DNA from: Naegleria gruberi
Taxonomy: Eukaryota
Length of the DNA stretch: 64,000 nt
Direction: 5' to 3' (one strand)
Assembly (NCBI GenBank): GCA_000004985.1
Contig: GG738903.1
Below the pieces are notes generated by a model. That model did no database searches and had not been told where the DNA came from. It worked only from the letters and a program-made list of their open reading frames with translations. Positions 2,015-63,805 of this stretch are shown in pieces. Every line of letters begins with the position of its first letter. The stretch's first letter is position 1. The position numbers and the translations under genes were made by a program.

Positions 2015-2157
2015 ATTAACATAGCAGTTGGAGATTAAGATGAGGTTGGTGAATCCAATAAACTGTAAGCATAGTTAATGGGTATTAGTTTATTATTATT
2101 GAGGGACTAATTAAATTGATTGACTTGTGAGATCACTTTTCACAAGATCAAAAAAAA

Positions 2158-3210: not shown

Positions 3211-3252
3211 TATTTACAATAATTTCGTTTCCTGAAACAATTTCTTTTGAAC

Positions 3253-20243: not shown

Positions 20244-20300
20244 GCCCGTCTAGCTCAGTCGGTAGAGCGCAAGGCTCTTAACCTTGTGGTGGGCGATTCC
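20244..20300 (+). pseudogene. tRNA-Lys(CUU) 5' fragment (acceptor 5' strand, D arm and anticodon arm intact; T arm decayed and 3' acceptor strand absent)
   Basis: GCCCGTC TA GCTCAGTCGGTAGAGC G CAAGG CTCTTAA CCTTG folds as acceptor 5' strand, D arm and anticodon arm with anticodon CUU. The sequence then degenerates (GGGCGATTCC with no complementary T stem), and no GACGGGC 3' acceptor strand follows. It lies in the divergent promoter between the P4H-like and F-box/LRR genes. Confidence 0.5.
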
Positions 20301-20417: not shown

Positions 20418-21722
20418 ATGAAGAAGCGAATGAGAGAAGAATTTGATCGTAATTCAATCATGATGGAAGGAAAGGAGTACGATAACTTATTCCCCGATGA
20501 TATTTGTGAAGAAATTATGCAATGGCTAGCTTGGAAAGAAGTTTTATTGAATTGTTGCCTAATTTCCAAGCAATGGTTTACAATTGCAAAATCAAGATAT
20601 AGAGCAAGTATTCAACTCACATATGGTCAAGAAAAATTATGGCTATGTTTTATTAAAGAGCAGCAGGAAGGAATTTCTCGTATATTTAATATTGGTGTTG
20701 ATTCTTTCAGAGTGGTGGGAAGTTACTTTATAGATAGCATTAATGCAGAGATTATTAGCAAATCGTTTCCTAATTTGAAGCGATTGGAAATTGGTGATAA
20801 CCAACAATTTGGAGATTGTGGAGCAGAGTCGATAAGTAAGATTAAGACTTTGACGAGCTTGAATGTTTTAGATTGTGGAATAACTTCAAAAGGAGCAGAA
20901 TTTATTGGATTGTTAAACGGGCTGACCTATCTTAATATTGGAAATAACAAGATTATGGATAGTGGAATGAAATTTATTGGAAAATTGAGTTCACTGAATG
21001 TTTTGCAGATTGGTAGTACTGAGATAACTAGTGAGAGTTTTAAATTGGTGGGCTGTATGAAGGGATTAACATCTCTTTCTATTTATTCAAATCCAGTCAC
21101 AATAGAAGATGCAAAATCCATAAGCTCAATACACGGCCTTAAATCTCTAAATATCAGCAATACAGGAATTTCTGTGGAAGGATTGAAATATTTAAGTGCA
21201 CTGACTTTACTAACGAACTTGTCTTTGGCCAAGAATAACATTACAAATGAAGGGCTTTTATCAATATCCCAAATGAAGCAAATAACTAAACTCTTTCTTC
21301 AACATAATGTAATAGACTGTGATGGAGCTCAATTATTAAGTACAATGACCAATTTGAGATTATTAAATATTAGTCAAACCAAAATCACCACTGAAGGAAT
21401 CAAGCACATTACCTCCTTGAAGAACATTACATCTTTGAATATTTCGATTAATCAGTTAAATGATGAAGCTTTAAAATTAGTTAGTTCAATGAATCAATTG
21501 ACCAATCTCAGTACACACAATAACAAGCTAACCAGCGAAGGCGCAAAACATATAAGCCAATTGAATAATCTAACAGAACTCAACATTTCCTCAAATCCTG
21601 TAAGAATCGAAGGTGCCAACTATTTAAATCAAATGACAACACTCAAAATAATTAATGTTTCAAACTGTAGAACTGGAATCTTCCAATGGAACAATAATAT
21701 TGATCTACAATTTGATGACTAG
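20418..21722 (+). CDS. F-box / leucine-rich-repeat protein (RNI-type LRRs)
   Basis: True ATG at 20418. The N-terminal LFPDDICEEIMQWLAWKEVLLNCCLISKQWFTIAKS is an F-box. About 12 LRR units of 24-25 aa follow, of the form LxxLxxLNISNTGISVEGLKYLSALTLLTNLSL. Confidence 0.7.
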   Translation: MKKRMREEFDRNSIMMEGKEYDNLFPDDICEEIMQWLAWKEVLLNCCLISKQWFTIAKSRYRASIQLTYGQEKLWLCFIKEQQEGISRIFNIGVDSFRVVGSYFIDSINAEIISKSFPNLKRLEIGDNQQFGDCGAESISKIKTLTSLNVLDCGITSKGAEFIGLLNGLTYLNIGNNKIMDSGMKFIGKLSSLNVLQIGSTEITSESFKLVGCMKGLTSLSIYSNPVTIEDAKSISSIHGLKSLNISNTGISVEGLKYLSALTLLTNLSLAKNNITNEGLLSISQMKQITKLFLQHNVIDCDGAQLLSTMTNLRLLNISQTKITTEGIKHITSLKNITSLNISINQLNDEALKLVSSMNQLTNLSTHNNKLTSEGAKHISQLNNLTELNISSNPVRIEGANYLNQMTTLKIINVSNCRTGIFQWNNNIDLQFDD

Positions 21723-21802
21723 CAGCACATGAACCATAAAGTTAAATAGTAAACAACTCTTGTTACCCATAAAGCAACCATCAAATTCACCAATCAAAAA
21801 AA

Positions 21803-23164
21803 ATGCCAAACATCAACATTCGACTTCGACAAGCCAAAAACTTGGCAGCAAAAGACCTTTCCAAAACGTCGGACCCATTGGTAATTTGCACAGTTAACAA
21901 CAAGAAATCATTCAAGACAGAACCAATCATGATGGACTGCAATCCAAACTGGGAAACGCACAAGAAACCAATTAAACATGAATTTACGGTGAATTTTGAC
22001 AAATTAACAGACGTGATACAATTACAAGTGGAAGACTATAACATCTTCTCTAAAAACAAACCAATAGGAAGTTGTCAAATACCTCTTCAATTTTTAGAAA
22101 AATCAAAACCAATGGAATTTACATTTGATTTACGTGATACGAAACAAGCAATTGCTGGACAATTGGTAGTTTTATTGGAAGCAATGGATTTTGGAATTGT
22201 TCCTTCAACAACAACAGTGCCTATGTATCCTCTTCCGACACAGCAACCATATTCTCCTCCTATTTCTGTTGTGCAGACACAGCAACCACAACAACCACAG
22301 CCACAGATACAGCCACAACAGCCACAACAGCAACTAGTTGGAAATTTACAAAGGAATGACAGTAGTCCAACACTTGCTGCACTCAGACATGGATCTTTCC
22401 TGACCAATAATAATACAGGTGTTGGTGGTCAATCACCTATTCAACAGCATCCATTGCAAACTTCTCAGAGTTTTATCATGCAAAAAACGACAATGGATCA
22501 ACAACAATCATCAATGATGATGGGCACAGGAAGTAATAGTGTATATGGAATGCCACTACCACAACAATATGTCAATAATGGAATGCAACAACAGCAACAA
22601 CAGCCATTGACACATTCCAATTCGTTCATTAATTATTCACAACAACCACAACAACAACAACCACCATCAATGTATAATAATTCTCAGCAAGGAGTTAATA
22701 TAATTTCACCAAGTGCTAATAATAATAATAATATTGGAACTCAATATACTCCTCCACAACAGTATAATCAACAGTATAATCAGGGAATTGTTAATAGTCC
22801 AGGAAGTATTTCATCTCCTTCGAATTTACAACCAATGAATAATTCATCATCTTATAATTTAATGAATAATTGTCAACTACAAGGAAATGTACAAGCTCAA
22901 CAAATTCAACAAAATGATAATAGTGTATCTACTCCAAGAAAGGCATTGCCTACATTACCAGTTAAACAAGGAAGTACAAGTCCTCAAACAATTGGTCAAC
23001 CAACAATTGATTCACAAATTCCAAAACCAAATGAGCTACCTCAATCGAATCAATGGACTGGTGTTGTCACTGATCAATACATTGATTATGTAGTTTCCCA
23101 ACTTCCAATTCCACTCTCCATACCAGAATATTACCAACGTTTTGTAAAGCCATTTAAAATATAA
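21803..23164 (+). CDS. C2-domain protein with a long Gln/Pro/Asn-rich low-complexity tail
   Basis: The N-terminal 120 aa (NIRLRQAKNLAAKDLSKTSDPLVICTV...IQLQVEDYN...IGSCQIPL) fit a C2 beta-sandwich. The remainder is poly-Q/P (QQPQQPQPQIQPQQPQQQ...). Confidence 0.65.
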   Translation: MPNINIRLRQAKNLAAKDLSKTSDPLVICTVNNKKSFKTEPIMMDCNPNWETHKKPIKHEFTVNFDKLTDVIQLQVEDYNIFSKNKPIGSCQIPLQFLEKSKPMEFTFDLRDTKQAIAGQLVVLLEAMDFGIVPSTTTVPMYPLPTQQPYSPPISVVQTQQPQQPQPQIQPQQPQQQLVGNLQRNDSSPTLAALRHGSFLTNNNTGVGGQSPIQQHPLQTSQSFIMQKTTMDQQQSSMMMGTGSNSVYGMPLPQQYVNNGMQQQQQQPLTHSNSFINYSQQPQQQQPPSMYNNSQQGVNIISPSANNNNNIGTQYTPPQQYNQQYNQGIVNSPGSISSPSNLQPMNNSSSYNLMNNCQLQGNVQAQQIQQNDNSVSTPRKALPTLPVKQGSTSPQTIGQPTIDSQIPKPNELPQSNQWTGVVTDQYIDYVVSQLPIPLSIPEYYQRFVKPFKI

Positions 23165-23207
23165 ATCCAAATCTGGACATTTGAATGATTTGAAACTTTT
23201 TAAAAAA

Positions 23208-24131
23208 ATGATAAAACGAACAATTGAAACTCTTGTTGATGAAGCAAATGTTGGATCTGAAACAAAAAAGACGAAACTCACTCATGAAGTTTTCAATGAT
23301 GATATTCTGGGTGAAATTTTATCCTTCCATGATGATTTTAAATTCATTGTATTGAATTGTGCATTAGTTTCGAAACAGTGGTTGAATGTCATATTGGAAA
23401 GATCAAGACTTTGTTTTCGATGTTATAGTAACAATTTGAAAGGTCGATTTTTACAAAATATTGCAACTTTGGTGGTGAGATTTGGAACTGTCGAATTTGA
23501 TTATCAAATACTTGGTCTGATGAAACGTTTATCACATCTTCGAGCTTGTTTTAATGATATTGGTGTTGAAGGGGCTAAACACATCAGTCAATTGAAACAA
23601 TTAACTTTTCTTGGAGTGAGTGGTAATTTTGTTGGAGTGGAAGGAGCCAAATACATTAGTCAATTGAAACAATTGACAAACCTAGATATTTGTTTTAATA
23701 ATATTGGAGATGAGGGAGCAAAACACATTAGTGAATTGAAACAATTGAAAAATCTCAAAATTGGAAACAATTACATTGGTGTTGAAGGTGCCAAATATAT
23801 TAGTCAACTGAAACATGTAACCAAGCTTTCTATTAGTTATAACAATGTCAGAGTTGAGGGGGTTAAATACATTAGTGAAATGAAACAATTAACTGATCTT
23901 AACATTGGTGAGAATGTAATTGGTGATGAAGGAGCTAAACATATTAAGAAATTGAATCAATTGACTAGATTAAGTATTTCAGGTGTTGAAATAAGTGAAG
24001 CAGGAGCTAAATACATTTGTGAAATGAAACAATTAACACAGCTCAATATTAAGAATAATAACATTGGCAAAATAGGCAAGGAATATATCTGTACTGAACT
24101 GAAATATTTAATTGATCTTGAAGTGTACTGA
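23208..24131 (+). CDS. F-box-like / leucine-rich-repeat protein (RNI-type LRRs)
   Basis: The first in-frame ATG is at 23208; the track start at 23181 is TTG. FNDDILGEILSFHDDFKFIVLNCALVSKQWLNVI is F-box-like. About 9 near-identical 24-aa repeats follow, ISQLKQLTxLxIxxNxIGxEGAKYI. Confidence 0.65.
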   Translation: MIKRTIETLVDEANVGSETKKTKLTHEVFNDDILGEILSFHDDFKFIVLNCALVSKQWLNVILERSRLCFRCYSNNLKGRFLQNIATLVVRFGTVEFDYQILGLMKRLSHLRACFNDIGVEGAKHISQLKQLTFLGVSGNFVGVEGAKYISQLKQLTNLDICFNNIGDEGAKHISELKQLKNLKIGNNYIGVEGAKYISQLKHVTKLSISYNNVRVEGVKYISEMKQLTDLNIGENVIGDEGAKHIKKLNQLTRLSISGVEISEAGAKYICEMKQLTQLNIKNNNIGKIGKEYICTELKYLIDLEVY

Positions 24132-24221
24132 AGTATAAAAAGAAAAAATTCATTTTCTTTCGTGCATTTGATTTGTACAAATACCATCCATGAAAGGTAA
24201 TCTTCTTGTCTATACTTAAAA

Positions 24222-25871
24222 TTATTTATTCCAATAACTTAATAATTCTTCCATTTTACCATACGAGTTGATGCTAACCTTCCTTAATTTGGCAAAAGTT
24301 GGATTTGTTTGCAAAGCTTTCACACATGCTTTTGATGCAGAAACGGAATGTGCATCAATTTTTCTCAAATTTACCAAATTGGTACACTTGGAAACAAGGT
24401 TTTCATACAAATTGATGCCATCCATATTGCAACATTGACAAATTAATTCCTTCAAATTGGAAAAGACTGGTGAATCGAAAATGATTTCGAATAAAGATTC
24501 TAAACAAGCCAAATCAGAAATATCCAAATATTCCAAGTTAGATAAGGTAGGAGCACTCAAAAAGGTTTCATAGGAACTCTTCAATAAGTTCTTGTTTTCA
24601 CAATATCTAGCACTTGAATGAGAGATAGTGAGCCTCTTTAGATTTGGGCAATGATAAGAGAGTGAAGGAAAGGTTGAAATGTAGGTACTTTTCAAATTCA
24701 AATCAGTGAGTGAGCTTTGAGAGTTTGGTGGACATTGTACAACCTCTGAATTTTCTTGTCTGTAGTGTGCAGTAGGACCTCCAAAAATGTTTGCATTTCC
24801 CCAATTAAAGTTTTCAGCTTTGAGTGTTGTGAGTTTTGGTAAACTTGGAGAAACAATCAAATTTACAAATTCACTATTTGGCATGGAACAATAGGAAAGA
24901 TCAAGTCTAGTAATATTGGTTAAACTTGTCCAAAAGTTTGGGTAAAGAGTCAATCTATGATTTCTAATACCCAAATATTCGAGATTGACCTTATCTTTCA
25001 ACAATTCGGTTAGTCCATAGTCTTCATTTCCAGATTGAGAATGTTGTGCTAATTCTAAATGAGTGAGTTGATTCAAATATTTGGATTCTGAAATGATTTG
25101 CAAAAATGATTTTGGAAAGTCGTGGCTTGTCAAGTCTAATTTTTTAACACTGGACATGAAACTGCTATTGAGTAATTCCTTTGCCTCCTTTTCTGTAAAC
25201 TTTTTCACATTGGCCAAGTTTAATTTTGTCAAATTCTTCATTGAACATTTCTTTAAATTCTTCACACTTTGAATTCCCATATTATTGGATGCTAAATTCA
25301 ATTTTGTCAAATTCTCCAACTTTTTACAATTAGAAAGTACTTGAAATGTATCAACACCAGCAGAAAACAATGATAATGAAGTGACATTCTTGATAAATGG
25401 TCCATCTAACAAACTGGTAATCTCTTCCTTTCCAACTTTGACTGACTTTCGTCTACTATAACTTGCAGTACCTAATCTCACTTTAAAACTAAGTCTTTTC
25501 AAGGTTTCTCTCCACATCTTGGATACCAATTGACAGGAATTCATCAGAACTGGTATATCCAAGAATTGATAAATGTGAAATAAATTATCCGAATTTAATT
25601 GATCGGACGAAACTCTTCTTCTATGCACATCCAACTCCTTCAAGAATTCGTTAATATTACCAACAAATTCATCAATCATACAATTATTATTTACAAAATA
25701 ATGATGACCAACTAATTTCACCTTTTTAGAAAGTGACAGTAATTGATCATTGACATTGGTCATTTCATTAAATAAAGTACCATCAATATTTTCATCAACA
25801 TGTTCATCAACATTTGCAAGTTGTTGATCTGATGTTTCTTCGTGTTTTCTCTTCTTGCTTTGTTTTGGCAT
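24222..25871 (-). CDS. F-box / LRR protein (FBXL/AMN1-like)
   Basis: 549-aa ORF from a true ATG at 25871. F-box LFHIYQFLDIPVLMNSCQLVSKMWRETL. Irregular LRRs with N/L/C-rich consensus follow (LTKLNLASNNMGIQSV, LTHLELAQH..., LEYLDISDLACL). Confidence 0.6.
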   Translation of the reverse strand: MPKQSKKRKHEETSDQQLANVDEHVDENIDGTLFNEMTNVNDQLLSLSKKVKLVGHHYFVNNNCMIDEFVGNINEFLKELDVHRRRVSSDQLNSDNLFHIYQFLDIPVLMNSCQLVSKMWRETLKRLSFKVRLGTASYSRRKSVKVGKEEITSLLDGPFIKNVTSLSLFSAGVDTFQVLSNCKKLENLTKLNLASNNMGIQSVKNLKKCSMKNLTKLNLANVKKFTEKEAKELLNSSFMSSVKKLDLTSHDFPKSFLQIISESKYLNQLTHLELAQHSQSGNEDYGLTELLKDKVNLEYLGIRNHRLTLYPNFWTSLTNITRLDLSYCSMPNSEFVNLIVSPSLPKLTTLKAENFNWGNANIFGGPTAHYRQENSEVVQCPPNSQSSLTDLNLKSTYISTFPSLSYHCPNLKRLTISHSSARYCENKNLLKSSYETFLSAPTLSNLEYLDISDLACLESLFEIIFDSPVFSNLKELICQCCNMDGINLYENLVSKCTNLVNLRKIDAHSVSASKACVKALQTNPTFAKLRKVSINSYGKMEELLSYWNK

Positions 25872-28422: not shown

Positions 28423-28493
28423 TGCATTAGCCGGGAGTCGAACCCGGGTCACCAGCTTGGAAGGCTGGTATGATACCGTTACACTACTAATGC
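28423..28493 (-). tRNA. tRNA-Gly (anticodon UCC)
   Basis: The reverse complement, GCATTAG TA GTGT AACGGTATC ATAC CCAGC CTTCCAA GCTGG TGA CCCGG GTTCGACT CCCGG CTAATGC, forms a complete cloverleaf. The T loop is GTTCGACT and the anticodon TCC sits in loop CTTCCAA. The 3' flank on the minus strand is a T5 run (a Pol III terminator). No encoded CCA. Confidence 0.9.
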
Positions 28494-28620: not shown

Positions 28621-29366
28621 ATTCTTGTTTTGTGGGCCAACCAATGCTAAAAATGAGCGTAAACGTTCAGTGAGCCTGAATTGATTTACAATTCTGTTCC
28701 TAACCAAAACAACAAATATTTGGTTTATTAATTATATTCTCACATAGATGCTTGTTATTTGATCGAACGGTCTTTTATCTTTCTGTGTTGGAAGAAACAA
28801 TCAATAAAGTTTTGTGTAATTTTTTAGCTAGTGGTTTGTAAACATTAAAAAAACGAGTTTATTTTGGACATTGCTCGATATCTACTTAATGAATCGTATC
28901 AGATTAAATATCACAATGTTATTTAACAAAATTATTATTGTATTGTTTTGTTGGTTTTATTAAAACTGTTGTTATTCTTAAAATGTTAGCAGATAGATAA
29001 GTTTCGGAAATCACTTACAATGGCAACATTTCTTCACTCCACACAATAAAATACTGTGATTACATGCGATCAAAGGTTGAATTTTGGAATATCATTAAGT
29101 AACTAAAAAGTTTGCTCCCAAAATAACATCCGAATAGTGAGCTAATTTACTTTGGGAAAAAATTACTGTTCAACCGATGGTCCAAGATCTATGAATTGAA
29201 TTATTGAAACAAAGATTGTCCTCAGTTTTATGCACAGTGATGTCTACAACGAAAAAACGATGGTAGTATATTAATGTTTTGAAGGTATACAGACATTGAA
29301 CAATACTGTTGGTCTGTATTTTATCATATTTTTTAGGGTTGGTTGGCCCACAATATACTAAGAATA
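28621..29366. mobile_element. candidate non-autonomous DNA element (MITE-like), about 745 bp, with imperfect terminal inverted repeats of about 35 bp
   Basis: Left end ATTCTTGTTTTGTGGGCCAACCAATGCTAAAAAT (28621..28654). The reverse complement of the right end 29327..29366 reads ATTCTTAGTATATTGTGGGCCAACCAACCCTAAAAAAT. The 14-bp core TGTGGGCCAACCAA is perfect (28631..28644 versus 29339..29352). No ORF longer than 60 aa lies inside. The right end overlaps the last 3 codons of the adjacent minus-strand gene. Confidence 0.4.
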
Positions 29367-30323
29367 TATAAGTACTCCAAATTGTCCACTATCACATACA
29401 TAAAGTAGACCACTTAATGGATCAATAATAATTCCAAAACTCTTATAATTTCCACTAACAGATTTAACTTTTGATAAATCCTCCCTTCTAACCACAACAA
29501 GTCTATAACCACCATTATCTGATACATAAATCAAATCAGAGGCCTTCTCATAGAATATAGAATAGGCAAAATTCATTCTAAAAGATGATTTTCGAATAGA
29601 ATTCCATTTTCCTTGCTGTTTTTCAAATAATTCTAAACAAGAATTATGACTCATTAATATTTCATTCTCAGAAAAGCAATGAATACCAAAACCACCACCC
29701 TCAATTTTCCCAATATCATCATCTAAATATTGTAAATGATCTCCATGTTCACGATCTAATATCATAACTGATTTTTCATAATCCACAACATAGAGTTGGG
29801 ATCCCATAACATCCAATCCCCAGATATTATAGTAAGTTTCTTTAGATTTCCAAACAAGAAGTGGATTCTTCCTCATTATATCAGAAACCTTAATCTTTAC
29901 AACATATGGATCAGTAGATGCATAAATATATTCCTCATCCTTCTCCTTAATCAATTTCAAACAATTAAAACAAGTAATTTCCTCAAACTCAACTTCAAAC
30001 AAGGCCTTCCTTCCAATTGACTTGTTTTCATACTCTTCAGCTGTCTCTGCTCTCGGAAAAACACTCAGTGCCGAACCATTCGTTACAATAAATCTATAAT
30101 AATCATTGGAGAGAACAATATCAAAACAATTCGGACCAACATGCCATGCAGAATAATAACCACTAACATTCAGTGATGAAAATTCGAGAGAGTATCGTTT
30201 GGTGGGGATGATATTAATTTTATATTTTAGGAGGTTAATTAAATTATTATTATCGTGATGATCATCATCAGTGGAAGTAAATTGGGACGGAAGAAAATCT
30301 ATCAGCTCAACCTTTACAGACAT
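29358..30323 (-). CDS. NHL/SMP-30-like beta-propeller protein
   Basis: 321-aa ORF from a true ATG at 30323. The C-terminal blades carry NHL-like signatures (LIYVSDNGGYRLVVV, LLYVCDSGQFGVLIY, SQLYVVDYEKSVMILD). Confidence 0.5.
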   Translation of the reverse strand: MSVKVELIDFLPSQFTSTDDDHHDNNNLINLLKYKINIIPTKRYSLEFSSLNVSGYYSAWHVGPNCFDIVLSNDYYRFIVTNGSALSVFPRAETAEEYENKSIGRKALFEVEFEEITCFNCLKLIKEKDEEYIYASTDPYVVKIKVSDIMRKNPLLVWKSKETYYNIWGLDVMGSQLYVVDYEKSVMILDREHGDHLQYLDDDIGKIEGGGFGIHCFSENEILMSHNSCLELFEKQQGKWNSIRKSSFRMNFAYSIFYEKASDLIYVSDNGGYRLVVVRREDLSKVKSVSGNYKSFGIIIDPLSGLLYVCDSGQFGVLIYS

Positions 30324-30872
30324 TTTTTTTTAAAATTATTTGTAAAGAATATTGTAAAGTTAGGGTGGTGAGGATTAACAGATTCATTTTGATAACATTA
30401 TCAATGGCATTGTTGATTTTATTTCGAATAAAGTGGAGACAGATACAGTTGACATGTTCTCTGTTTGACATTGAAATGATGTATCAGCCATTATCAGAGT
30501 ATATGGCCAATGGTTCTTGAATTGTATGACAAAATCCTCATCTCATCTGCATTGAGTTGTGTTCTATATTCAGTCTCTTCTTTAATTTGTCCATTTTTGT
30601 AGAAAGATTCATGAAGTTTGTTTATTCGAATAAAAAGAATTTAAAAATTTTTGGTGTTTTTGAATTCTATACAAGTCGAACAGGTATTCGTTAAAAAACT
30701 GTGGTTAACATCTCTGATGCGAAGTATTTATCAACTTTCTCTTCATGGATGCAATATACGAAACCATCTGAAAGGGAGGTTTAAAAACTGGATAATTGTA
30801 TCACTTTAAATAGGGAGGATAAACTTCTTTCAACATCTTTCCTTAGTCTTTAGAGCATTAAAAGAAAAAAGA

Positions 30873-31286
30873 ATGAAAACCAATTCAATGGATCGCTTAT
30901 TTGATAATTTGATGAGATTATACTTGACATTGCTGGCAGAAACTCAAACTAATCTTGAACAAATACAAGTTGATAAAACAATAAGTGCCAGTAATCCACA
31001 AGTGTTGGAAGAAAACCAAAAAGTTTCCACTCAGACATCGTACGAAACATCTAATGTAGACAATGATTCGAATAATGTAATTTGTGATACAATCTCGCAA
31101 AGCGAACCACTTCCAAGTAATAGAAACGAAAGCTCATCTACCGATCATACAAACAATAGGACTGAATTGAATTTTGTAATAGTTAGTGCCTCGACCATTT
31201 CAGAGAAATGTTATTCGAAAGTTAAAAGAGGAAGAGGAAGACCAAGAAAAAATACACTAAACAATAATAACAATACCAACAAATAA
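30873..31286 (+). CDS. small AT-hook protein (137 aa), paralog A of a two-member family in this window
   Basis: The conserved N-terminal helix is MDRLFDNLMRLYLTLLAETQTNLEQIQVD. The conserved C-terminal block ELNFVIVSASTISEKCYSKVKRGRGRPRKN ends in a canonical AT-hook (GRP core). It is about 70 percent nucleotide-identical by eye at both ends to 59222..59599. Confidence 0.6.
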   Translation: MKTNSMDRLFDNLMRLYLTLLAETQTNLEQIQVDKTISASNPQVLEENQKVSTQTSYETSNVDNDSNNVICDTISQSEPLPSNRNESSSTDHTNNRTELNFVIVSASTISEKCYSKVKRGRGRPRKNTLNNNNNTNK

Positions 31287-31438: not shown

Positions 31439-32431
31439 ATGAAACGTTTCTCTTGTGCACTTTCGAATACCTTTAAATTCGTCCAACCTAGACGAACGTT
31501 GCCGAATACTTTAAACAAGAATAATTTACGCAATTCCTTCCGATCCTTTCACACTAATTTTCCAATTTTTAATCAAAATGATCGAAATGCAAATGAGACT
31601 CAGAATCTTATAGACGAAATTTCCAAAGCAATTCGTGAACAACAATATTCGAAAGCGAAACAAACTCTCCGAGGATTAACCAAGAATTGGTTGGGATTTT
31701 ACAAATTCGATGATAATCAATTAGCTCTTTATTTACAGAGTTTAGTCTTGTTGGATTGTTCGAATAATGATGAACGAAAGATGAATCTAACACCCTTGCT
31801 ATTAGCTTCGAATAATGGCTATAAGAAAGCTCACTTAATGCTTGCAACTATGGCTTATTTGAAGGATTCCAATTTGGAGAATGAAAATTATAGAGTTTAT
31901 TTGAAGGAATTTGACGAAAGTGTGGATTGGAATGACGAAACATTGGTTCAATTGACCATTGAATCACATTTAAAAGAATTAATCCAACAATTTGATTCGA
32001 GATTTGCACATTTTGCTCTTGGAAAATTTTACATGAAAAATCAAAAATATCAAAAGGCGTGTGAAGCATTCACTCAGTCAACCGAGAAGAAATTTACAAA
32101 ATCTCAATTTGAATTAGGTCTCTTAATGAGAAATGGATCTCCTGATGGAATGGTTTCGAAAAATCCTGAACGTGCTCTCGAATTATTCAAAAAATCGAGA
32201 TGGGAACCACAAGCTCATAAGGAATTAGTTGAAATGTATCTGAATGGTGAAGGTACAGATCCAAGTTATTTGAAAGCAGCTTTTCAGACATGTATTTATT
32301 ACATTGTCAAGTTTGTAAATAGCAGATTCTTCCTCGTATTGCTATTCTTGATGGAATTATTACTTGCTCTTATGGATGCAGTTTTGTCTATCGTTTTGGG
32401 AATTGTTGGAATCTTTGGTGTCCTTGTTTGA
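31439..32431 (+). CDS. Sel1-like repeat protein with a C-terminal transmembrane anchor
   Basis: Sel1/TPR-like units (FALGKFYMKNQKYQKACEAFTQS..., FELGLLMRNGSPDGMVSKNPERALELFKKS..., LVEMYLNGEGTDPSYLKAAFQ). A hydrophobic tail (FFLVLLFLMELLLALMDAVLSIVLGIVGIFGVLV). A basic S/T/R-rich N-terminus that may be a targeting peptide. Confidence 0.55.
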   Translation: MKRFSCALSNTFKFVQPRRTLPNTLNKNNLRNSFRSFHTNFPIFNQNDRNANETQNLIDEISKAIREQQYSKAKQTLRGLTKNWLGFYKFDDNQLALYLQSLVLLDCSNNDERKMNLTPLLLASNNGYKKAHLMLATMAYLKDSNLENENYRVYLKEFDESVDWNDETLVQLTIESHLKELIQQFDSRFAHFALGKFYMKNQKYQKACEAFTQSTEKKFTKSQFELGLLMRNGSPDGMVSKNPERALELFKKSRWEPQAHKELVEMYLNGEGTDPSYLKAAFQTCIYYIVKFVNSRFFLVLLFLMELLLALMDAVLSIVLGIVGIFGVLV

Positions 32432-32755: not shown

Positions 32756-34405
32756 ATGATTGGTCCAATACTTTTAGCATTGAGTTTAGCTCTCATTGGC
32801 GTGATTGCACTTAAAATCTACAAGAATATTCAAAAAGCAAAGGGAATTCCTGGTGTTTGGCAAGTTTTGGATAATTCTCCTTGTTACATTCCAATTCTCT
32901 CTCCATATTTTTATATGGGATCTGAAAATCATCTCATTGAGGTGGCAACGAAGAGAGGTGATCCAGAAACTGGTACTTTACGTATCACAACAATGAATCT
33001 TAATAGAATATTCGTTTCGGATAGAGAAATGTTGAAAGACATTCACTCTAGAAAGTTGGGTTTCTTCCCAAAATCAAAAACATTCCTTGAACCAACTGAA
33101 GTATTTGGTGGACACATAGTTTCGGCTCCAGATACCGATTCTTGGAAGAAACATCACAATACCATTTCTCCAGCTTTTAGCTCTAATAATTTAGAATACA
33201 TGTCACATGTTTCCAGTGAAACTGTTGATACTATGGCTCAATGCCTTTGGAATCCTGACATTGAAAGCAAAGGAGAACATGTAATTGATAGAGTTGACAA
33301 GTTATTTACCAATTTGACATTGGACATTTTGGCAAAATGTAAGTGTCTTCTATTTTACATTGGAAATTCAATTATTCTCATCACAATAATCACAACTAGC
33401 TGCATTTGGAGCAAGTTTCTCAATCTTTGTTCCAAAAGAAATGGAAAACACAAATGAAGTCATCATGGGAAGAAAATTGAAAGATTCAGTTGACAATATT
33501 TTCAATATTGGTTTCGTTATTAGAATTGGTTTTCCTAAATTCATGCATGCCACATTATTTAAATGGTTTGGTTTGGATAAAGATATTGACAGATTTGTTG
33601 AAAGAGTTCAAAACTTGATTGACCAAAAGAAAGAGGAAATTGAACGTGATGGAGAAGTTTCTACAAGAGATGTTGTATCATTGATGATTCAAGAGAATTT
33701 GAATAACAAAGAATTGACCAAAGAAGAAATCCTATCCAATGCTTTTATATTTTTCATTGCTGGTAAGTTTTCAGTTGACCAAAAACTAATTATTGACTCT
33801 AAACTCTTCAAATAATAGGAATGGACACTAGCTCAAATACATTGCAATGGTTCCTCTATGAAATTGCCAAAAATCCATCTCTCCAAAAACGTTTACAAGA
33901 AGAAGTTGACAACATTCTTCCAAACAAGAGAAAACCAACTTTTGACGATTACAATCAATTGAATTTGATCACCGCTTGCATTCATGAAACATTGAGAGTA
34001 CATCCTCCAGTGACCAGTGTTGCAAAGGATTGTGCCAAACCTGTCCAATTAGGTCCATTTCACATTCCAAAAGGATCTGTCATTTATTCATTCTTGACAG
34101 CTGCCAACAAGAATCCAAAAGTTTGGCCAAACGCTCTTGCTTTCAATCCAGATAGATTCTACGATCCCGATGTAAAATCCAAGTCTGCCAATGACTATAC
34201 CTTATTAAGCTTCTCAATGGGTTTAAGAAAATGCTTGGGAATGAAATTTGCCTTGATTGAAATGACTTGTGTTTTGGCCAGAATGTTGCAATATTATGAG
34301 TTTGAATTGTTGAATGATGAATCTGTTGATCCAGTGATGAATTTTAGTAAGCTAACTGTAAAGCCAAGCAATTTGAGAATTCGTGTGATTAAGAGAACTA
34401 ATTAA
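32756..34405 (+). CDS. cytochrome P450 monooxygenase; 3 exons (510 aa)
   Basis: Three track ORFs are joined by GTAAGT introns: 33339..33399 (61 nt) and 33763..33818 (56 nt). The splices recreate the AFG motif (ILAKS|AFGAS) and the I-helix FIAG|GMDTSSNTL. The ExxR motif (ETLRVHPP) and the heme-binding motif (FSMGLRKCLG) are present. An N-terminal membrane anchor is present. Model: join(32756..33338,33400..33762,33819..34405); the total of 1533 nt is in frame. Confidence 0.85.
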
Positions 34406-44819: not shown

Positions 44820-44892
44820 CTCCCCCTGGTGGGCTCGAACCACCGACCTGCAGATTAACAGTCTGACGCTCTACCGACTGAGCTAAGGGGGA
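44820..44892 (-). tRNA. tRNA-Asn (anticodon GUU)
   Basis: The reverse complement, TCCCCCT TA GCTC AGTCGGTA GAGC G TCAGA CTGTTAA TCTGC AGGTC GGTGG TTCGAGC CCACC AGGGGGA, forms a complete cloverleaf. A T-run terminator lies downstream on the minus strand. Confidence 0.9.
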
Positions 44893-51540: not shown

Positions 51541-52107
51541 TTTTAACTTATACCAACTCAACATTGTCTGTGGCTTGATGATTTCGTCTAGCGGAAATTA
51601 ATATAATATAATTAAATAATAAAGATGAGTAATGTAGTGCTTGCAATCGCATTTGGTTTATTATTAATAATAAGAGTATTAGTGATTATTTTGTTGAATA
51701 TTATATTGAATCCATCACAGCAACGATCAGATTATAGAATCATAAATGAAAACCACTTTAGTATTTATTACGATATATACCTGAACGGTATGCCATGATG
51801 TATTTTTCTAATTGATCAAACATATTTTCGAGTTTAGTTTTTGCTTGTGAAGTAGTTAATGTTGCGATAAGATGATATCTATGATCTCTGAAGTCAACGA
51901 ACTCACGGCAGAGCCTACGAGGAGATTTTTGCTTCATTGAATTATACATAAAATCCAATTCACAGCAAGCAATTATGATGTCCAGTGCCCAAAGAGGAAG
52001 AAGGAGAAAGTTGTCAAGAAGGAAAAGGAGAAGGTTGTCACTCATCTGATAAAATTTTGTCGAGTCGTTCTAGATTTTTTTTATGGCAGAAAGGCTTTTA
52101 TTTACAA

Positions 52108-55620: not shown

Positions 55621-55865
55621 TGTTCTACTTATTTTTTTTAATGAAAGTTGACTGGAGTAATGAAACGTCCAACATCAATCACAATTTTCATTGTCAAAAT
55701 TTGGTAACAAGCAATACAAGCTTTCAAGTGAAAACCATTTTATGAAGAGGTCAGTAAAATTCCTTAGTATTAAGAGTTTCGAATATAAGAACAAGGAACA
55801 CATTCCTTTGATCATCAAGGAACATAAAAAAAACAAAAAATCAAAAATTGTAAAAAATCAAAAAA

Positions 55866-56651: not shown

Positions 56652-57036
56652 AGAAGAAAATGGTTAATTCTCAATCCATAACTTAGAAACCTTTTGTGAA
56701 AATGAATAGTTTTAATATCATATCTTGATATTATAAAGTAATAAAATTTGGAACCAAATGGTATTGGATTAAATCTTCAAGGAAATTTTATTCCGAACAA
56801 ATTCCGAAAAAAATGGTTAGCGTCATTCCGAGGTTTTTGAGCCAAAAATAATTCGGAAGCTTTTTGATGGTGATGAAGTTTATTTTCGGGATGTGTGTTT
56901 TGGAGAGTAGTATTTAAGTGATGACACCAATCTCAAATTGAAAATAACAATCAAGAAAAAAGAAGCAATTCAACAATTGAAAGCGAAACAAGCTAACTTG
57001 TAAATAATAATAGTAAATAGTAATAATAACAACAAG

Positions 57037-58983
57037 ATGTCATCTGCTGAAGTATTTGATGGAGCTATTGGTATTGATTTGGGAACAACTTATTCATGTG
57101 TTGGTGTTTATATGGGAGATAATGTAGAAATCATTCCGAATGATCAAGGTAATAGAACAACACCTTCCTATGTTGCATTCACTGATGAAGAACGTTTAAT
57201 TGGTGATGCTGCCAAGAATCAAGTTGCAATGAATCCACACAATACAGTATTTGATGCTAAACGTTTAATTGGTAGAAAGTTTTCCGACTCAACAGTTCAA
57301 GATGATATGAAACATTGGCCATTCAAGGTCATTACAAAGAGTGATGAGAAACCATACATTCAAGTTGAATACAAAGGAGAATCACATGTTTTCACACCAG
57401 AACAAATCTCATCCATGGTCTTGACTAAAATGAAGGATATTTCAGAACAATATTTGGGTAAACAAGTCAAGAAGGCAGTCATTACAGTTCCTGCCTATTT
57501 CAACGATTCACAAAGACAAGCAACCAAGGATGCTGGTGCAATTGCTGGTTTGGAAGTTTTGAGAATTATCAATGAACCAACAGCTGCTGCCATTGCTTAT
57601 GGTTTGAATAAGAAGGGTGAGAGAAATGTTTTGATTTTCGATTTGGGTGGTGGTACTTTTGATGTTTCAATTTTGAATATTGAGGATGGTGTTTTTGAAG
57701 TGAAAGCCACTGCTGGTGATACCCACTTGGGAGGAGAAGATTTTGATAACTTGATGGTTCAATTCTGCTGTCAAGAATTTAAGAGAAAGTACAAGAAGGA
57801 TATTCAAGAAAATCCAAGAGCATTAAGAAGATTGAGAACTGCTTGTGAAAGAGCCAAGAGAAATTTATCATCAGCTGCTAACGCTTCAATTAATGTTGAT
57901 TCAATTATGGACGGAATTGATTTGGATATTTCAATGACTCGTGCTAAATTTGAACAATTGAATATGGACTTGTTTAAGAAGTGTTTCGAACCAGTCAAGA
58001 AGGTTTTACAAGATTCAGGATTGGACAAGGCACAAATTGATGATGTTGTTTTGGTTGGTGGTTCAACACGTATTCCAAAAGTTCAAGAAATGCTCAGAGA
58101 ATTCTTCAACGGTAAAGAATTGTGCAGATCAATTAATCCAGATGAAGCTGTAGCTTATGGTGCTGCAGTTCAAGGTGGTGTTTTAACTGGTAAGGAAACC
58201 AAAGTCTTACTGATCGATGTTACTCCACTTTCATTGGGTATTGAAACAGCTGGTGGTGTCATGACCAAATTGATTGAAAGAAATTCAACCATTCCATGTA
58301 AGAAATCTGAAATCTTCTCAACCTATGCTGATAATCAAACAGCAGTCACTATTCAAGTCTTTGAAGGAGAAAGAACCTTGACAAAGGATAATCACTTGTT
58401 GGGAAGATTTAACTTGGAAGGTATTCCACCAGCACCAAGAGGTGTTCCAAAGATTGAAGTCACATTTGAAATTGATTCTAATGGTATTATGAAAGTTTCT
58501 GCCAAGGATACTTCATCTGGTAAGACACAAAACATTACCATCAAGAATGAACAAGGACGTTTGAGTAAGGAAGAAATTGAAGAAATGGTCAAGAAGGCCA
58601 AGGAAATGGAACAATTTGATAAGGAATTGAAAGAAAAGATTGATGCCAAGAATCAATTAGAGGCCTACGCCTATCAAATGAAATCCACTGCTGATGATCC
58701 AAACTTGTCTGGTAAATTATCAGATGCTGATAAGAATACCATCAAGAAGACATGTGAGGAAGTTATTAATTGGTTAGATAATAATTCTACCTATTCAAAG
58801 GATGATATTGAAAAGAAAAGAAAAGAATTGGAAGGTAAATGTGCACCAATTGTTAGCAAGCTGTATCAACAAGGAGCTGGTCAACCAGAATTCACACCAA
58901 ATGGAGCAAACTTTACCTCATCAGGTAATACTTCCAGTGGTTCTGAATCAAAGCCAAAGTTTGAAGATGTTGATGTTGATTAA
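57037..58983 (+). CDS. HSP70: cytosolic HSP70 (DnaK family), 648 aa, no introns
   Basis: [22 protein letters not shown], the canonical nucleotide-binding and substrate-binding domains, and a GGMP-free G/S-rich tail. The C-terminus ends FEDVDVD rather than EEVD. Confidence 0.95.
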
Positions 58984-59221
58984 ATAAACAAACCATTTCT
59001 CATCTCTACCAACACTCGAGTTGATGCAACATTCTTAATTGAAGCGAAAAGGCAAAAGATTTCAAAGAGATACTACTCGCAAGATTTAAAATCGAAATAG
59101 ATAAGGACTTTAATGGAATTGTTTTCTGTAAAAAAGTTAACCCCGAAGAGATCAATATCCATTCTAATAAATTATCAGTTGATAATTTAATAGAGAAGTT
59201 GGGTTTGTTCAAAAGAAAAGA

Positions 59222-59599
59222 ATGGGAACAATGGATCGTTTATTTGATAATTTTATGAGATTGTACATTATATTGCTTACTGCGCAAACTAATCTAGAAC
59301 AAATGCAAGTTGACAATACTATCATTAGCAGAAATCAAGAACAGGAACTAAACCAAACTAGAAGTGAAGAATTTTCCACACACACAACAAACGGACTAGA
59401 TGTTTACACTGATTCGAATAGTGTCCTTTCTGATAATTTCTTGCAAAGTAAACCACTTGCAAGCACAAGACTTGTTGAAAGCTCACCGAAGACAGAATTG
59501 AATTTTGTACTGGTTAGTGCCTCAACCATTGCAGAGACATGTTATTTGAAAGTTAAAAGAGGTAGAGGAAGACCAAGAAAAAATAGCCTTAACAAATAG
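59222..59599 (+). CDS. small AT-hook protein (125 aa), paralog B
   Basis: MGTMDRLFDNFMRLYIILLTAQTNLEQMQVD ... ELNFVLVSASTIAETCYLKVKRGRGRPRKN. Same architecture as 30873..31286. Confidence 0.6.
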   Translation: MGTMDRLFDNFMRLYIILLTAQTNLEQMQVDNTIISRNQEQELNQTRSEEFSTHTTNGLDVYTDSNSVLSDNFLQSKPLASTRLVESSPKTELNFVLVSASTIAETCYLKVKRGRGRPRKNSLNK

Positions 59600-59665: not shown

Positions 59666-62600
59666 TTATTTGAGTGAATCCATTAGATTTTTAGTTTCAG
59701 TTCTAGATTTCAACAATTGACCATTAGTAAGTCCCTTTGCAAGTAAGCCCATAAGATTATTTGGTTTCTTCTTAGTTTCTTCTTCCTTCTTAGCAAGATT
59801 CATTAATCCAGCAAAGAAATTGTTTGCATTCTTCTTTCTTTCTTCTTGCTGTTTTCCAAGCACTGACAAGAGTTTGTTTTCCTCATCACCAGTTGGAGTT
59901 TTGGCAGATGTTGGAGTGAGTGATGACAAGAGCGAGGTCTTTGATTTCAAACTTGACAGATCAAATGATGGGGATTGAGGAGTGGCATTGATAGATGGTT
60001 TAGTAAGCAAAGAAGTTGCAGTAGTTGATGAAGCTGCCTTCTTTCTTTGCATTAATAATTCCTTCTTCTTATCAAATCCAAGTTGTTTCTCATTCTTCTT
60101 TTTGGTTTCTTCTTGAAGTTTCTTTTGTTTTTCCTTTTCTTCCTTTTCTCTCTTGGCTTTCAAATCTTCACAGGCCTTATTCAAACTCTCGACAAAGTTG
60201 TGAATTTGAGTAAAGAATGTATCAGGTTTGTCAAGTAAATCTTGTGGCTTTTCGTCGAAGAGAGCTGCAATGAGTTTGAGATTTTCCTCAACAGTTGTTC
60301 TTGATTTTTCAATAATTTCCAATTGGTTTTGAGCTGTGCCGATGGTTTCTTCCATAACTTCGAGGAATCTATCTTTAGGATGGATATTCTTTTCCTTCTT
60401 CATCTTTTCAAAGAAGTTCTTGGTCTTTTTGGTATCTTCTTGGAGTTTCTTGATATCTTGGTCAATTGGAGCAAGTTGCAAACGAGTACATGTTTGTACA
60501 GATGACAAATCATTTGAAACTGTCAACAATTCAGGGAAATTATCTTGACACACTTGAGCCAAGTATTGAAGCATACTCTGCTTTGGATCTCTAGCTTTCA
60601 TAGTTTGCATCTTTTCGAGAGAACTAATCTTGAAACCATAAATGTTTTGCAACTTTTTGTTTGGAGCATGTTGATTGATATAGTTACCAATTGTCAAAAT
60701 GAGAGCCAAAATATCATGCAATTTGGTGGATGCTTGCAATTCCTTACAACCATTGAGCATTGAATCAAGTTTTGGTCTAATGGCAGAAATTCTGGAACCC
60801 AATTTGAGTTTAAAGTCCCACGATTGAACTCTTGTCAATGGAGATGGAATATCCAATAAGAAGGTGAAGAATGTTTCAGCCATTGGAATAACCTTCTTTG
60901 GTGCATCTGGATCCTCAGAAACTTCCTCTTCCTTGGTATCATCAAGATATTTCTGAATAACTGGAATTTCCTCATCGAGTGGCATGCAACCACTCAAAAC
61001 TTCAATGTTATTATCATCGACTGTCTTTTCGTCCATTTCAATGATGGCATTTCTGTAACGAGCACATTTCATTTGATCAGTTTCTGAATTATCCAACTTT
61101 TTAAGAGCAGAGAATTGAATGGAAATGTTATTCGAACGTTTACCATCAATTAAAATGATTTCTTCGACCTTTTTCTTTGCTGGTTGATCGGTGGCAATTG
61201 CCTTTTCCTCAACTTTTTCAAAAGCTTCCTCAATAGTTCCCAAATCAATCTTCTTAATCCATTCATTTGTCTTTTCAGCAATTCCATTCTTGATAAAGAT
61301 TGTTTGTTGAATGTTGGTTTGTGGAATTGTGTCAAAGAAGAAAACCTTGGTCTTTCTTCTTGGTTTAGCATTTGGTAATGTTGGAAGAACTGGTTTCTTG
61401 ACACCAGGAAGCATTCCCATTCCAGGTGGAGGAGGCATTCCAGGTAAACCACCCATTCCAGGTGGAGGTGGCATTCCCATACCTGGAGGCATTGGAACAC
61501 CTGAACCTGGAGGCATTGGAATTCCAGGTAAACCACCAGGTGGAGGAGGAACACCCATTCCTGGTGGCATTGGAATACCTGAACCAGGTGGAGGAGGAAT
61601 TCCCATACCAGGAGGCATTGGAATGCCTGAACCAGGAGGTGGTGGAACGCCCATTCCTGGTGGCATTGGAATACCAGATCCAGGTGGAGGAGGAACACCA
61701 GATCCACTTGGCAAACCACCAGGTGGAGGAGGAACAAATCCAGTTGAACCAGGTGGAGGAGGAACACCACCAGTAGCACCTGTCTCACTTGGTAATTTCA
61801 AATTATTGACCTTCATGAATTCTTCCAATTGCATAGCTCTCTGGTTGATGACACGAATTTCCTTGATTTGAACTTCAAGTTTTTCCTTTTCAGCTTCAGC
61901 TTCCTTCAACTTATCGGTCAAGGTCAAATTTTCTTCCTTAGATTTGGTCAATTCAAGTTTGAGAGTTTCTTCTTTGGAAAGATTAGTCACAGCATTCATG
62001 AATGATGAAAGAGTTTGTTTACGTTTCTTTGAACGTTCCTCAGCATCTCTCTTCTCGAGCTCTTGCTTTTGTTGGAAGAGCTCCTTCTTCATGTTCATAA
62101 TTTCATTTTCCAAGTCCAAAATTGTACGTTGTTGAGTCTTGACCAAACCATCGAGTTCAATTTCCTTTTCTGTTGTGAATTTGACCTTATCTTCTTTGAT
62201 GGCTACTTTCAAAAGGTTTTCAACAGTTGCCCATGATTTGTTAATTTCTTCAATTTCTATACCTTTAGACTTGCTGATAATTCCAAATTTGGTCAATTTC
62301 AACATGGAATTCAAAATATTTACAAAGCTGTTGTGAGCAGAGCTTGAAGAGCTAGCTTCATCATCCTTATTCAAGGTAATCAAGTAATTTGAAATTGATC
62401 TGGCAATATCAATAGGGCTACTAAGATCAATTTCATCCAAATCCTTGATGGAGGAAGATTCCTCATCGTGTTCTTCAGCAAATGAATTGAAAACACTTTC
62501 GAATGCCTTGATTTGTAAGAAAATATTCGAGAGTGGAGATTCCTCATCGTCCTTATCAATATTTTGCTCCTCAGCCAATACCTCATACTTCAAGTAAATG

Positions 62601-63805
62601 TACTTTACAGCCATGTGAAGTCCCAAATTCTTCCATTCACGCATCAATGAGATTCTAACACCTTCATTTGGAGAAACAGAGATCAATGAATTGAAAAAGA
62701 TCATGGTTGTCAAGACATAGGAAGCAATTGCTCCATTAAACATGTCATCAACTTCCAAATTTTCACCAGCCAAAAAGTTTAAACTATCAATCAAGAAATG
62801 GAAACGTTTTGGTTCTCTCTTGATCAATTTAAAGCTTGTCAATGCGTCAAGAATCAATTCGAAACCATCCATATTCTCAACATTCAAATTCATAATCACA
62901 GAAAGCAAAAGCAAAATTTGTGATCTCAATTCCAATGAATTGGAATCCAAAGTAAGAACCAAAGTTCTCAAAATATCCTTGTTCTTAAAGAAACAACCTC
63001 TAGCATAATCGGAAGTATTCAAAATTGTTTCAATACACTTTAAACAGTAAACTTCCTTTGTTTCCTTCTCTTCATCTGCAGAAGTTGACAATGCAGTCGA
63101 TGCCAAACAATCTGCCAATGAAGTGAGACCTCCCTCATTCAAGAAACCTCTCAACCACACTGAGTACTTGACCTCTTCAGAAGTTGTTGAAATTTCCAGT
63201 AAACTTTGATCTTCTTCAGCTGAAAGAGTTGAACAAATTGTCAACACTTCAGAAATTGTCTTTAACTGCAACAAATCAAAATTTCTCTCTGTAAACTTTT
63301 TGATAATCAAAGAGGGACTTGCATTGATAGCTTTCAATGTCAATTGTTCTTGTTTGTTCAAGTGATTTTCTTTGATTAAATTGTCTTCCTCTTCTTCTTT
63401 ACTAATTTGCTTTGGAGGAGTGGCATCTTTCTTTCCGAACATACCACCCATCAATTTTTGAATTCCTGACATTCTCTTTGAACTAACAGAAACTCTAGGT
63501 GAAAGCATATCAAGAAAATTATTCGAATCCAACGTTGGAGAAGTAACTTTTGGAGTTGTCTTCTCCTCATGAACCTCCTCACCAAACACCATATCACCAG
63601 TAAATGCACTAAAATTACCAGATCTTCTCTTATTAGCAGCAAAATTCAATGAAGATGGAGTAATTGACTCAACATTGAGTGTATCAAAACATGAAGATGA
63701 TGATGACAATGATTTGGAATTGGGTGGTGTTGATTGATTGGTTGTTGGAGGAGAGGTTTTCCTTCCAGAACCATTACCATTAGCAGAACCAGAACCAGCA
63801 AACAT
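59666..63805 (-). CDS. formin (GBD/FH3 - FH1 - FH2), 1379 aa, with an expanded FH1
   Basis: Uninterrupted ORF from a true ATG at 63805. The FH1 has at least 9 PPPPG/PMPPGMG units (GVPPPPGSGIPMPPGMGVPPPPGSGIPMPPGM...). It is followed by an FH2 and a K/E-rich coiled-coil tail. A paralog of 52108..55620 on the same strand, 4 kb away. Confidence 0.85.
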   Translation of the reverse strand: MFAGSGSANGNGSGRKTSPPTTNQSTPPNSKSLSSSSSCFDTLNVESITPSSLNFAANKRRSGNFSAFTGDMVFGEEVHEEKTTPKVTSPTLDSNNFLDMLSPRVSVSSKRMSGIQKLMGGMFGKKDATPPKQISKEEEEDNLIKENHLNKQEQLTLKAINASPSLIIKKFTERNFDLLQLKTISEVLTICSTLSAEEDQSLLEISTTSEEVKYSVWLRGFLNEGGLTSLADCLASTALSTSADEEKETKEVYCLKCIETILNTSDYARGCFFKNKDILRTLVLTLDSNSLELRSQILLLLSVIMNLNVENMDGFELILDALTSFKLIKREPKRFHFLIDSLNFLAGENLEVDDMFNGAIASYVLTTMIFFNSLISVSPNEGVRISLMREWKNLGLHMAVKYIYLKYEVLAEEQNIDKDDEESPLSNIFLQIKAFESVFNSFAEEHDEESSSIKDLDEIDLSSPIDIARSISNYLITLNKDDEASSSSSAHNSFVNILNSMLKLTKFGIISKSKGIEIEEINKSWATVENLLKVAIKEDKVKFTTEKEIELDGLVKTQQRTILDLENEIMNMKKELFQQKQELEKRDAEERSKKRKQTLSSFMNAVTNLSKEETLKLELTKSKEENLTLTDKLKEAEAEKEKLEVQIKEIRVINQRAMQLEEFMKVNNLKLPSETGATGGVPPPPGSTGFVPPPPGGLPSGSGVPPPPGSGIPMPPGMGVPPPPGSGIPMPPGMGIPPPPGSGIPMPPGMGVPPPPGGLPGIPMPPGSGVPMPPGMGMPPPPGMGGLPGMPPPPGMGMLPGVKKPVLPTLPNAKPRRKTKVFFFDTIPQTNIQQTIFIKNGIAEKTNEWIKKIDLGTIEEAFEKVEEKAIATDQPAKKKVEEIILIDGKRSNNISIQFSALKKLDNSETDQMKCARYRNAIIEMDEKTVDDNNIEVLSGCMPLDEEIPVIQKYLDDTKEEEVSEDPDAPKKVIPMAETFFTFLLDIPSPLTRVQSWDFKLKLGSRISAIRPKLDSMLNGCKELQASTKLHDILALILTIGNYINQHAPNKKLQNIYGFKISSLEKMQTMKARDPKQSMLQYLAQVCQDNFPELLTVSNDLSSVQTCTRLQLAPIDQDIKKLQEDTKKTKNFFEKMKKEKNIHPKDRFLEVMEETIGTAQNQLEIIEKSRTTVEENLKLIAALFDEKPQDLLDKPDTFFTQIHNFVESLNKACEDLKAKREKEEKEKQKKLQEETKKKNEKQLGFDKKKELLMQRKKAASSTTATSLLTKPSINATPQSPSFDLSSLKSKTSLLSSLTPTSAKTPTGDEENKLLSVLGKQQEERKKNANNFFAGLMNLAKKEEETKKKPNNLMGLLAKGLTNGQLLKSRTETKNLMDSLK

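Follow-up and report, generated by a model that had tools for sequence, protein, structure and literature searches.

In plants, the AHL proteins combine one or two AT-hooks with a self-associating module, and their oligomerisation results in multivalent binding to AT-rich DNA; the module is the PPC/DUF296 domain, which spans about 120 aa and forms trimers. In actinobacteria, the activator WhiB7 carries an N-terminal partner-binding module and a single C-terminal AT-hook which anchors the complex on AT-rich DNA; its partner is sigma factor A, which is bound through an iron-sulfur cluster domain with four cysteines. HMGA1 and HMGA2, the third system considered here, are small (about 100-140 aa), largely disordered proteins with three hooks and an acidic C-terminal tail, which have no structured helix and achieve bivalent or trivalent binding in the nanomolar range. 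Short AT-hooks bind weakly when alone, and their affinity is modulated by flanking residues and by nearby phosphorylation; AT-hooks and extended AT-hooks are also able to bind RNA, to mediate protein contacts and to act as nuclear localisation signals, and WhiB7 is a small AT-hook protein for which structural data are available (reviewed in PMC11354804). For the nonapeptide KRGRGRPRK there is a crystal structure in which it lies in the minor groove of d(CGTTAATTAACG)2 (PDB 8CPG), and the free peptide binds AT-rich DNA with a Kd of 1.5-5.8 uM as against > 10 uM on (CG)4 (PMC11526092).

We analysed a 64-kb stretch of Naegleria gruberi nuclear DNA (GC 33%), referred to here as the window, in which a preliminary description had pointed out two related ORFs ending in an AT-hook. 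Both ORFs, named ORF A and ORF B in the following, were indeed present on the + strand, with exactly the coordinates and the lengths (137 aa and 125 aa) that had been assigned to them. They are separated by 28 kb, encode products of about 14-15.5 kDa and belong to one 304-kb scaffold, and the sole annotation of either gene is 'predicted protein'. Our reading, which we hold to be probable, is that the two form a lineage-restricted family of small adaptors binding AT-rich DNA. The genes and the parts of their products are as follows.

30873..31286, + strand: ORF A, 137 aa, single exon, stand-alone gene; product identical to XP_002671693 (NAEGRDRAFT_73240)
30888..30974, + strand: N-terminal conserved block of ORF A, M6-D34 (MDRLFDNLMRLYLTLLAETQTNLEQIQVD), predicted amphipathic helix with muH up to 0.63
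30975..31163, + strand: acidic S/T/N/Q-rich linker of ORF A, net charge about -6, predicted disordered with pLDDT < 50
31164..31253, + strand: C-terminal conserved block of ORF A, E98-N127 (ELNFVIVSASTISEKCYSKVKRGRGRPRKN), predicted helix running into the AT-hook
31224..31250, + strand: AT-hook KRGRGRPRK of ORF A, residues 118-126, identical to AT-hook 1 of HMGA1
59222..59599, + strand: ORF B, 125 aa, single exon; product identical to XP_002671702 (NAEGRDRAFT_73253)
59231..59314, + strand: N-terminal conserved block of ORF B, M4-D31, predicted amphipathic helix
59495..59584, + strand: C-terminal conserved block of ORF B, E92-N121, with the AT-hook KRGRGRPRK at 59555-59581

Anatomy of the two proteins and their AT-hook

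Two independent AlphaFold runs agreed on a four-part layout, in which a predicted N-terminal helix is followed by a disordered acidic linker, a second helix and an extended hook. Along these four parts the charge changes from -1 through -4 to -6 and about 0 to +7. The models, which were built on a two-sequence alignment, reached a mean pLDDT of 58-61 and a pTM of 0.24, and the helices seen in them are indicative of secondary-structure propensity. The N-terminal helix (muH 0.5-0.63) was modelled with a mean pLDDT of 71 for residues 1-10 and 90 for residues 11-20 in ORF A, the corresponding values being 80 and 90 in ORF B. It is slightly acidic and presents an unusually broad hydrophobic face, made up in copy A of L9, F10, L13, M14, L16, Y17, L18, L20 and L21. 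The second predicted helix, ELNFVxVSASTIxExCY, has a pLDDT of about 65-80, and the two proteins contain few cysteines, two in ORF A and one in ORF B.

The conserved blocks at both ends had been written out as motifs in the preliminary description. The C-terminal one, ELNFVxVSASTIxExCYxKVKRGRGRPRKN, is correct in both copies, while the N-terminal one, MDRLFDNxMRLYxxLLxxQTNLEQxQVD, stands except for the spacing between LL and QTNLEQ, which amounts to three residues (AET) in copy A and two (TA) in copy B.

Both ORFs have KVKRGRGRPRKN in common, in which an R-G-R-P core is set between basic flanks, and the motif GRP[RK] occurs exactly once per ORF. The nonapeptide KRGRGRPRK of A and B agrees letter for letter with AT-hook 1 of HMGA1, which bears out the earlier assignment of a C-terminal AT-hook, though the Pfam AT_hook profile (PF02178) gave 15.8 bits (E = 0.012) for ORF A and 16.4 bits (E = 0.0076) for ORF B, just under the gathering cut-off of 17.4. 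Such a shortfall of 1.0-1.6 bits is expected for a single motif of 13 positions. AT_hook is the sole Pfam family matched by both proteins; a zf-TFIIIC match (E 0.005) was dismissed as spurious, being below the cut-off, confined to copy A and located in the low-complexity middle.

It may be argued that the main task of the basic tail is to direct the proteins to the nucleus or nucleolus, or to bind RNA or protein, and that the activity of these proteins resides in the two conserved helices, for example in a small subunit of a Naegleria-specific complex, with any minor-groove binding being incidental. RNA binding and protein-protein contacts have both been described for AT-hooks (PMC11354804), and the conserved sequence of the two proteins lies mostly outside the 9-residue hook, both of which speak for such a role. 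But AT-selective DNA binding has been measured for a peptide of exactly this sequence (PMC11526092), and the hook has stayed unchanged in two paralogues that have diverged by 0.7-1.1 at synonymous sites. The exact identity with HMGA1 and the invariance between old paralogues argue against a generic basic patch, and we regard this explanation as unlikely.

Coding status and selection

The proteins encoded by ORF A and ORF B are 58% identical over 130 columns (BLASTP, E = 1e-43). When counted by codons, their amino-acid identity is ~74% in the N-terminal block and ~83% in the C-terminal block as against ~44% in the middle, which contains several indels and is the most divergent part of the alignment; the divergent, acidic and S/T-rich middles that had been claimed for the pair were thus recovered, with a net charge of -4 to -6. 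At the DNA level, identity is 72% over 395 aligned columns, and the alignment starts and stops at the ORF borders. A nucleotide comparison of the flanks gave no alignment of one locus to the other, so that the similarity is confined to the ORFs, as had been described. A six-frame tblastn search of the 64-kb window showed that a third copy is absent from it. ORF A and ORF B are paralogues, and with a dS of 0.7-1.1 between them, the duplication appears to be an old one that took place in the N. gruberi lineage.

One part of the alignment departs from this general level of divergence. A 105-nt block at the 3' end (31160-31264 against 59491-59595) is 90% identical in DNA, compared with 72% for the ORFs overall, and dS of the C block is 0.24, compared with 0.75 and 1.1-1.2 in the other two parts. 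The low dS and high identity of this block may be due to strong codon bias on K/R/G/P codons or to partial gene conversion between A and B, rather than to long-term constraint.

The preliminary description had maintained that the pair represents a protein family under selection and not a copied repeat. An alternative to be weighed against this is that the ORFs are non-functional, either as chance ORFs, as decaying duplicates or as fragments inside a multicopy mobile element. We found dN/dS between A and B to be 0.40 over the whole alignment by the Nei-Gojobori method, which is significantly below 1 (one-sided Fisher p = 1.4e-4); by the same method the N block gave 0.21 and the two conserved blocks together 0.28, and the range from other estimators was 0.25-0.42. 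In the C block alone, purifying selection did not reach significance (p = 0.09). Both frames have stayed intact despite a dS of about 0.7-1.1, and all indels within the ORFs are multiples of 3 in a nucleotide alignment which is blind to codons. In the AT-rich DNA of the window the probability of a stop codon is 0.074 per codon (about one per 13-14 codons), and the chance that a frame remains open over 125-137 codons is accordingly 3e-5 to 7e-5 for each ORF.

Codon usage was scored as log-odds with a model trained on the large genes of the window. The annotated frames of the two ORFs obtained +0.23 and +0.27 bits per codon, while all the other five frames were below 0. These values are lower than the 0.39-0.60 bits per codon of the large neighbouring genes, which may be counted in favour of non-function. 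The same holds for the lack of detectable homologues outside the N. gruberi complex and for the lack of expression evidence from identifier searches, in which the NAEGRDRAFT identifiers were found neither in the searchable texts of papers nor in the supplements to a preprint on chromatin proteomics and to a paper on N. gruberi proteomics, a result that is uninformative on expression.

Further evidence came from an ENA metagenome contig (L001, sample ERZ929261) which represents the Hsp70-ORF B-formin segment of a closely related strain at 97.6% identity. In this environmental allele, ORF B is free of indels and shows three substitutions, each at a third codon position (one being M28I), whereas the 238-bp spacer upstream of ORF B has acquired 6 substitutions together with 7-bp and 19-bp indels. 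ORF B has thus remained intact in an independent strain while the adjacent spacer has changed. As regards a mobile element, the window contains two copies with unrelated flanks, and no transposases, terminal repeats or repeat families were found around either ORF within these 64 kb; the multicopy element with shared flanks which had been named as the contrary case was therefore not encountered here. Combined together, the dN/dS ratio, the in-frame indels, the frame-specific coding potential, the unrelated flanks and the ordinary neighbours uphold the view of a protein family under selection. ORF A and ORF B are genuine coding genes under purifying selection, and we consider non-function to be very unlikely and, judging from the window, an origin from a transposable element or an artefact to be unlikely.

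Relatives, known systems and the proposed function

A word-indexed search of 5.8e9 proteins retrieved nothing besides the two N. gruberi proteins. In a HMMER profile search of 1.84e9 cluster representatives we obtained ORF B itself and ten unrelated multi-AT-hook proteins, all of them matching in the hook only. These ten share the motif (K/V)KRGRGRPRK with ORF A and ORF B, but they are repeat proteins with 3 to 13 hooks, and none of them has the N-terminal helix or the ELNFVxVSASTI block. JGI metagenome contigs, which were searched with N-terminal peptide patterns and with a back-translated DNA pattern of NFVxVSASTI, gave chance matches only, and nothing was found in the viral contigs of IMG/VR. 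A sequence profile search of the PDB returned noise (E at least 0.085), and Foldseek found 0 matches in the PDB for the predicted model. The absence of a known family, which had been stated earlier, is consistent with all these searches and with a Pfam scan run to E up to 10, as they yielded the AT-hook and nothing else.

The suggestion that the proteins are lineage-specific also gained support, since the matches are limited to the two N. gruberi proteins and one environmental allele. Annotated proteins of N. fowleri and N. lovaniensis are present in the databases, as their Hsp70s were retrieved; any orthologue in these species must therefore be unannotated or too diverged to be detected. At the retrieved Hsp70 loci of both species Ras and TrmO are found upstream, and DOCK/RasGEF takes the place of the formin downstream. 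An AT-hook ORF is absent from these loci. As the genes on both sides of Hsp70 differ from those at the ORF B locus, collinearity is lacking, and the loci are uninformative on absence from those species. A tblastn match upstream of the N. fowleri Hsp70 (E = 0.19) was rejected, there being no corresponding ORF. We classify ORF A and ORF B as an orphan, lineage-restricted family of a known kind, that of small AT-hook chromatin/transcription proteins.

Among the described systems, HMGA1 and HMGA2 resemble the pair in being small and largely disordered and in combining an acidic region with an AT-hook. In contrast to their three hooks, each protein of the pair carries a single one, placed at its extreme C-terminus, and instead of an acidic tail the two have an internal acidic region, a basic C-terminus (+7) and two conserved predicted helices; the profile searches, with their hook-only matches, gave no sequence similarity to HMGA outside the hook. 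The plant AHL proteins share with the pair the logic of an interaction module plus hook. The N. gruberi proteins are much smaller than the AHLs, and no PPC/DUF296 match was obtained in the Pfam scan (E up to 10). The likeness to WhiB7 is in the mode of action only, again an interaction module and a C-terminal hook. WhiB7 is bacterial and binds its sigma factor through a domain with four cysteines, whereas ORF A and ORF B have only one or two cysteines, and neither a Whib match in the Pfam scan nor homology in the profile search was noticed. The pair is therefore not HMGA, as it has one hook, an internal acidic region and conserved predicted helices; it is not AHL, as it lacks PPC; and it is not WhiB7-like, as it lacks the Fe-S domain.

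A role as chromatin or transcription regulator, which had been put forward in the preliminary description, is a possibility suggested by the AT-hook. In the adaptor reading preferred here, the C-terminal tail (+7) with its single hook would anchor the protein in AT-rich minor grooves. One hook means micromolar affinity and little sequence specificity, and the conserved N-terminal helix must then supply a second function. This helix, LFDN[LF]MRLY[LI]x[LI]L, may self-associate in A-A, A-B or B-B combinations, which would produce a bivalent, HMGA-like binder. Alternatively, it may dock on a chromatin or transcription partner, in which case the hook would tether that partner to DNA. The pre-hook helix ELNFVxVSASTIxExCY would position or extend the hook, and the acidic S/T/N/Q linker would act as a flexible spacer, possibly regulated by phosphorylation and possibly folding back on the basic tail. 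That the proteins are nuclear, that they bind DNA at full length and what the N-terminal helix does are inferred.

A more specific version of this adaptor explanation, and no exclusive alternative to it, is that the proteins are minimal transcriptional activators, in which the acidic/hydrophobic N-terminal helix (D-R-L-F-D-N-[LF]-M, of the FxxPhiPhi type) and the acidic linker would constitute an activation domain recruiting co-activators, with the hook as the only DNA anchor. The amphipathic N-terminal helix, whose acidic-hydrophobic pattern is kept in both copies, agrees with this, as does the net charge of -4 to -6 of the linker, and WhiB7 offers a precedent among small AT-hook proteins with structural data (PMC11354804). 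The mechanism would be a eukaryotic counterpart of the one described above for WhiB7. However, with a single AT-hook such a protein would hardly distinguish one promoter from another, and patterns like FxxPhiPhi turn up in amphipathic helices of every kind. The same segment also fits the loose consensus of a nuclear export signal, so that such pattern matches carry little weight. Activation in this specific form appears improbable to us.

The adaptor reading can also be extended to the origin of the family. It would then have been born within the N. gruberi species complex, where an HMGA-identical hook and a new helical interaction module would have come together as a minimal, self-contained chromatin/transcription adaptor, a eukaryotic analogue of the WhiB7 design, whose helix recruits a partner or oligomerises with it and whose hook tethers the assembly to AT-rich DNA. 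We put this forward tentatively and consider it rather doubtful in its entirety. If true, it would make the pair a tractable case of a new DNA-targeted regulator arising from one short linear motif and one helix. The adaptor reading itself, if true, would place ORF A and ORF B among the simplest AT-hook proteins, in which a helix makes the protein contact and a hook the contact to DNA, and they would provide a clean system for examining how a single low-affinity minor-groove anchor gains use through a partner or through oligomerisation, and how lineage-specific chromatin factors originate in a deep-branching eukaryote (Heterolobosea). The practical significance is limited, as eukaryotic genomes commonly encode orphan proteins in which a short basic motif binds DNA, and the pair gives no sign of an unusual mechanism.

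Genomic surroundings

ORF A is situated between a divergent gene of 321 aa (29358..30323, - strand; no Pfam match) and a Sel1/TPR-repeat gene (31439..32431, + strand), and further upstream are LRR, C2 and dynamin-like GTPase genes and a tRNA-Gly. ORF B occupies the 682 bp that separate an Hsp70 gene (57037..58983, + strand) from a formin gene (59666..63805, - strand), both of which face it with their 3' ends. Over the 28 kb from one copy to the other there are genes for a cytochrome P450, an alpha/beta hydrolase, XRN1, an alcohol dehydrogenase, an F-box/Ras-like protein, a second formin and a tRNA-Asn. The idea that the two copies mark the ends of a segmental duplication or of a mobile element was rejected, as ordinary cellular genes lie between them and there are no flanking repeats.

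Upstream of ORF B, at 59168-59189 and 33 bp before the start codon, we noticed a perfect 22-bp palindrome, TAAATTATCA-GT-TGATAATTTA, and upstream of ORF A an inverted repeat, TGATAA-CA-TTATCA, at 30390-30403, which has GATA-like half sites as in the ORF B palindrome. A shared promoter motif, and with it co-regulation, was discarded, since the window contains these patterns about as often as expected by chance (1 and 2 matches observed, 0.92 and 1.09 expected).

The Hsp70 gene at 57037-58983 is 98% identical to a paralogue located on a different N. gruberi scaffold, NAEGRDRAFT_44741, and this identity points to a recent duplication. The environmental contig L001 is collinear with the window only from ~250 bp upstream of Hsp70 onwards; its positions 1-4228, with a DUF1264 gene and others, have no counterpart in the window at 52000-56790, where a 261-aa gene and a formin are located. 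This mismatch is due either to a rearrangement in the strain or to chimeric assembly by way of the Hsp70 paralogue, which is nearly identical. Hsp70 and ORF B are bracketed by paralogous formin (FH2) genes at 52108-55620 and 59666-63805, both on the - strand, which share a 95-nt stretch with 79% identity, and in the second of them a long polyproline repeat of FH1, with a period of 24 nt, lies at 61433-61719.

Two tRNA genes were identified on the - strand, tRNA-Gly(UCC) at 28423-28493 and tRNA-Asn(GUU) at 44820-44892. A 52-nt tRNA-like Rfam match (36.7 bits) at 20244-20295 on the + strand, which has no ARAGORN call, may be a truncated or degenerate tRNA. The ORF at 33821-34405 (+ strand) covers no more than the C-terminal portion of the profile for cytochrome P450 (positions 275-460 of 462, E = 5e-59); since the N-terminal part is missing from it, an upstream exon, and hence a gene with an intron, is indicated, and this exon is perhaps the ORF at 32756-33457. 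One of the three LRR genes, which together occupy 20418-25871, contains seven tandem units of 72 nt (24 aa) at 23481-24108.
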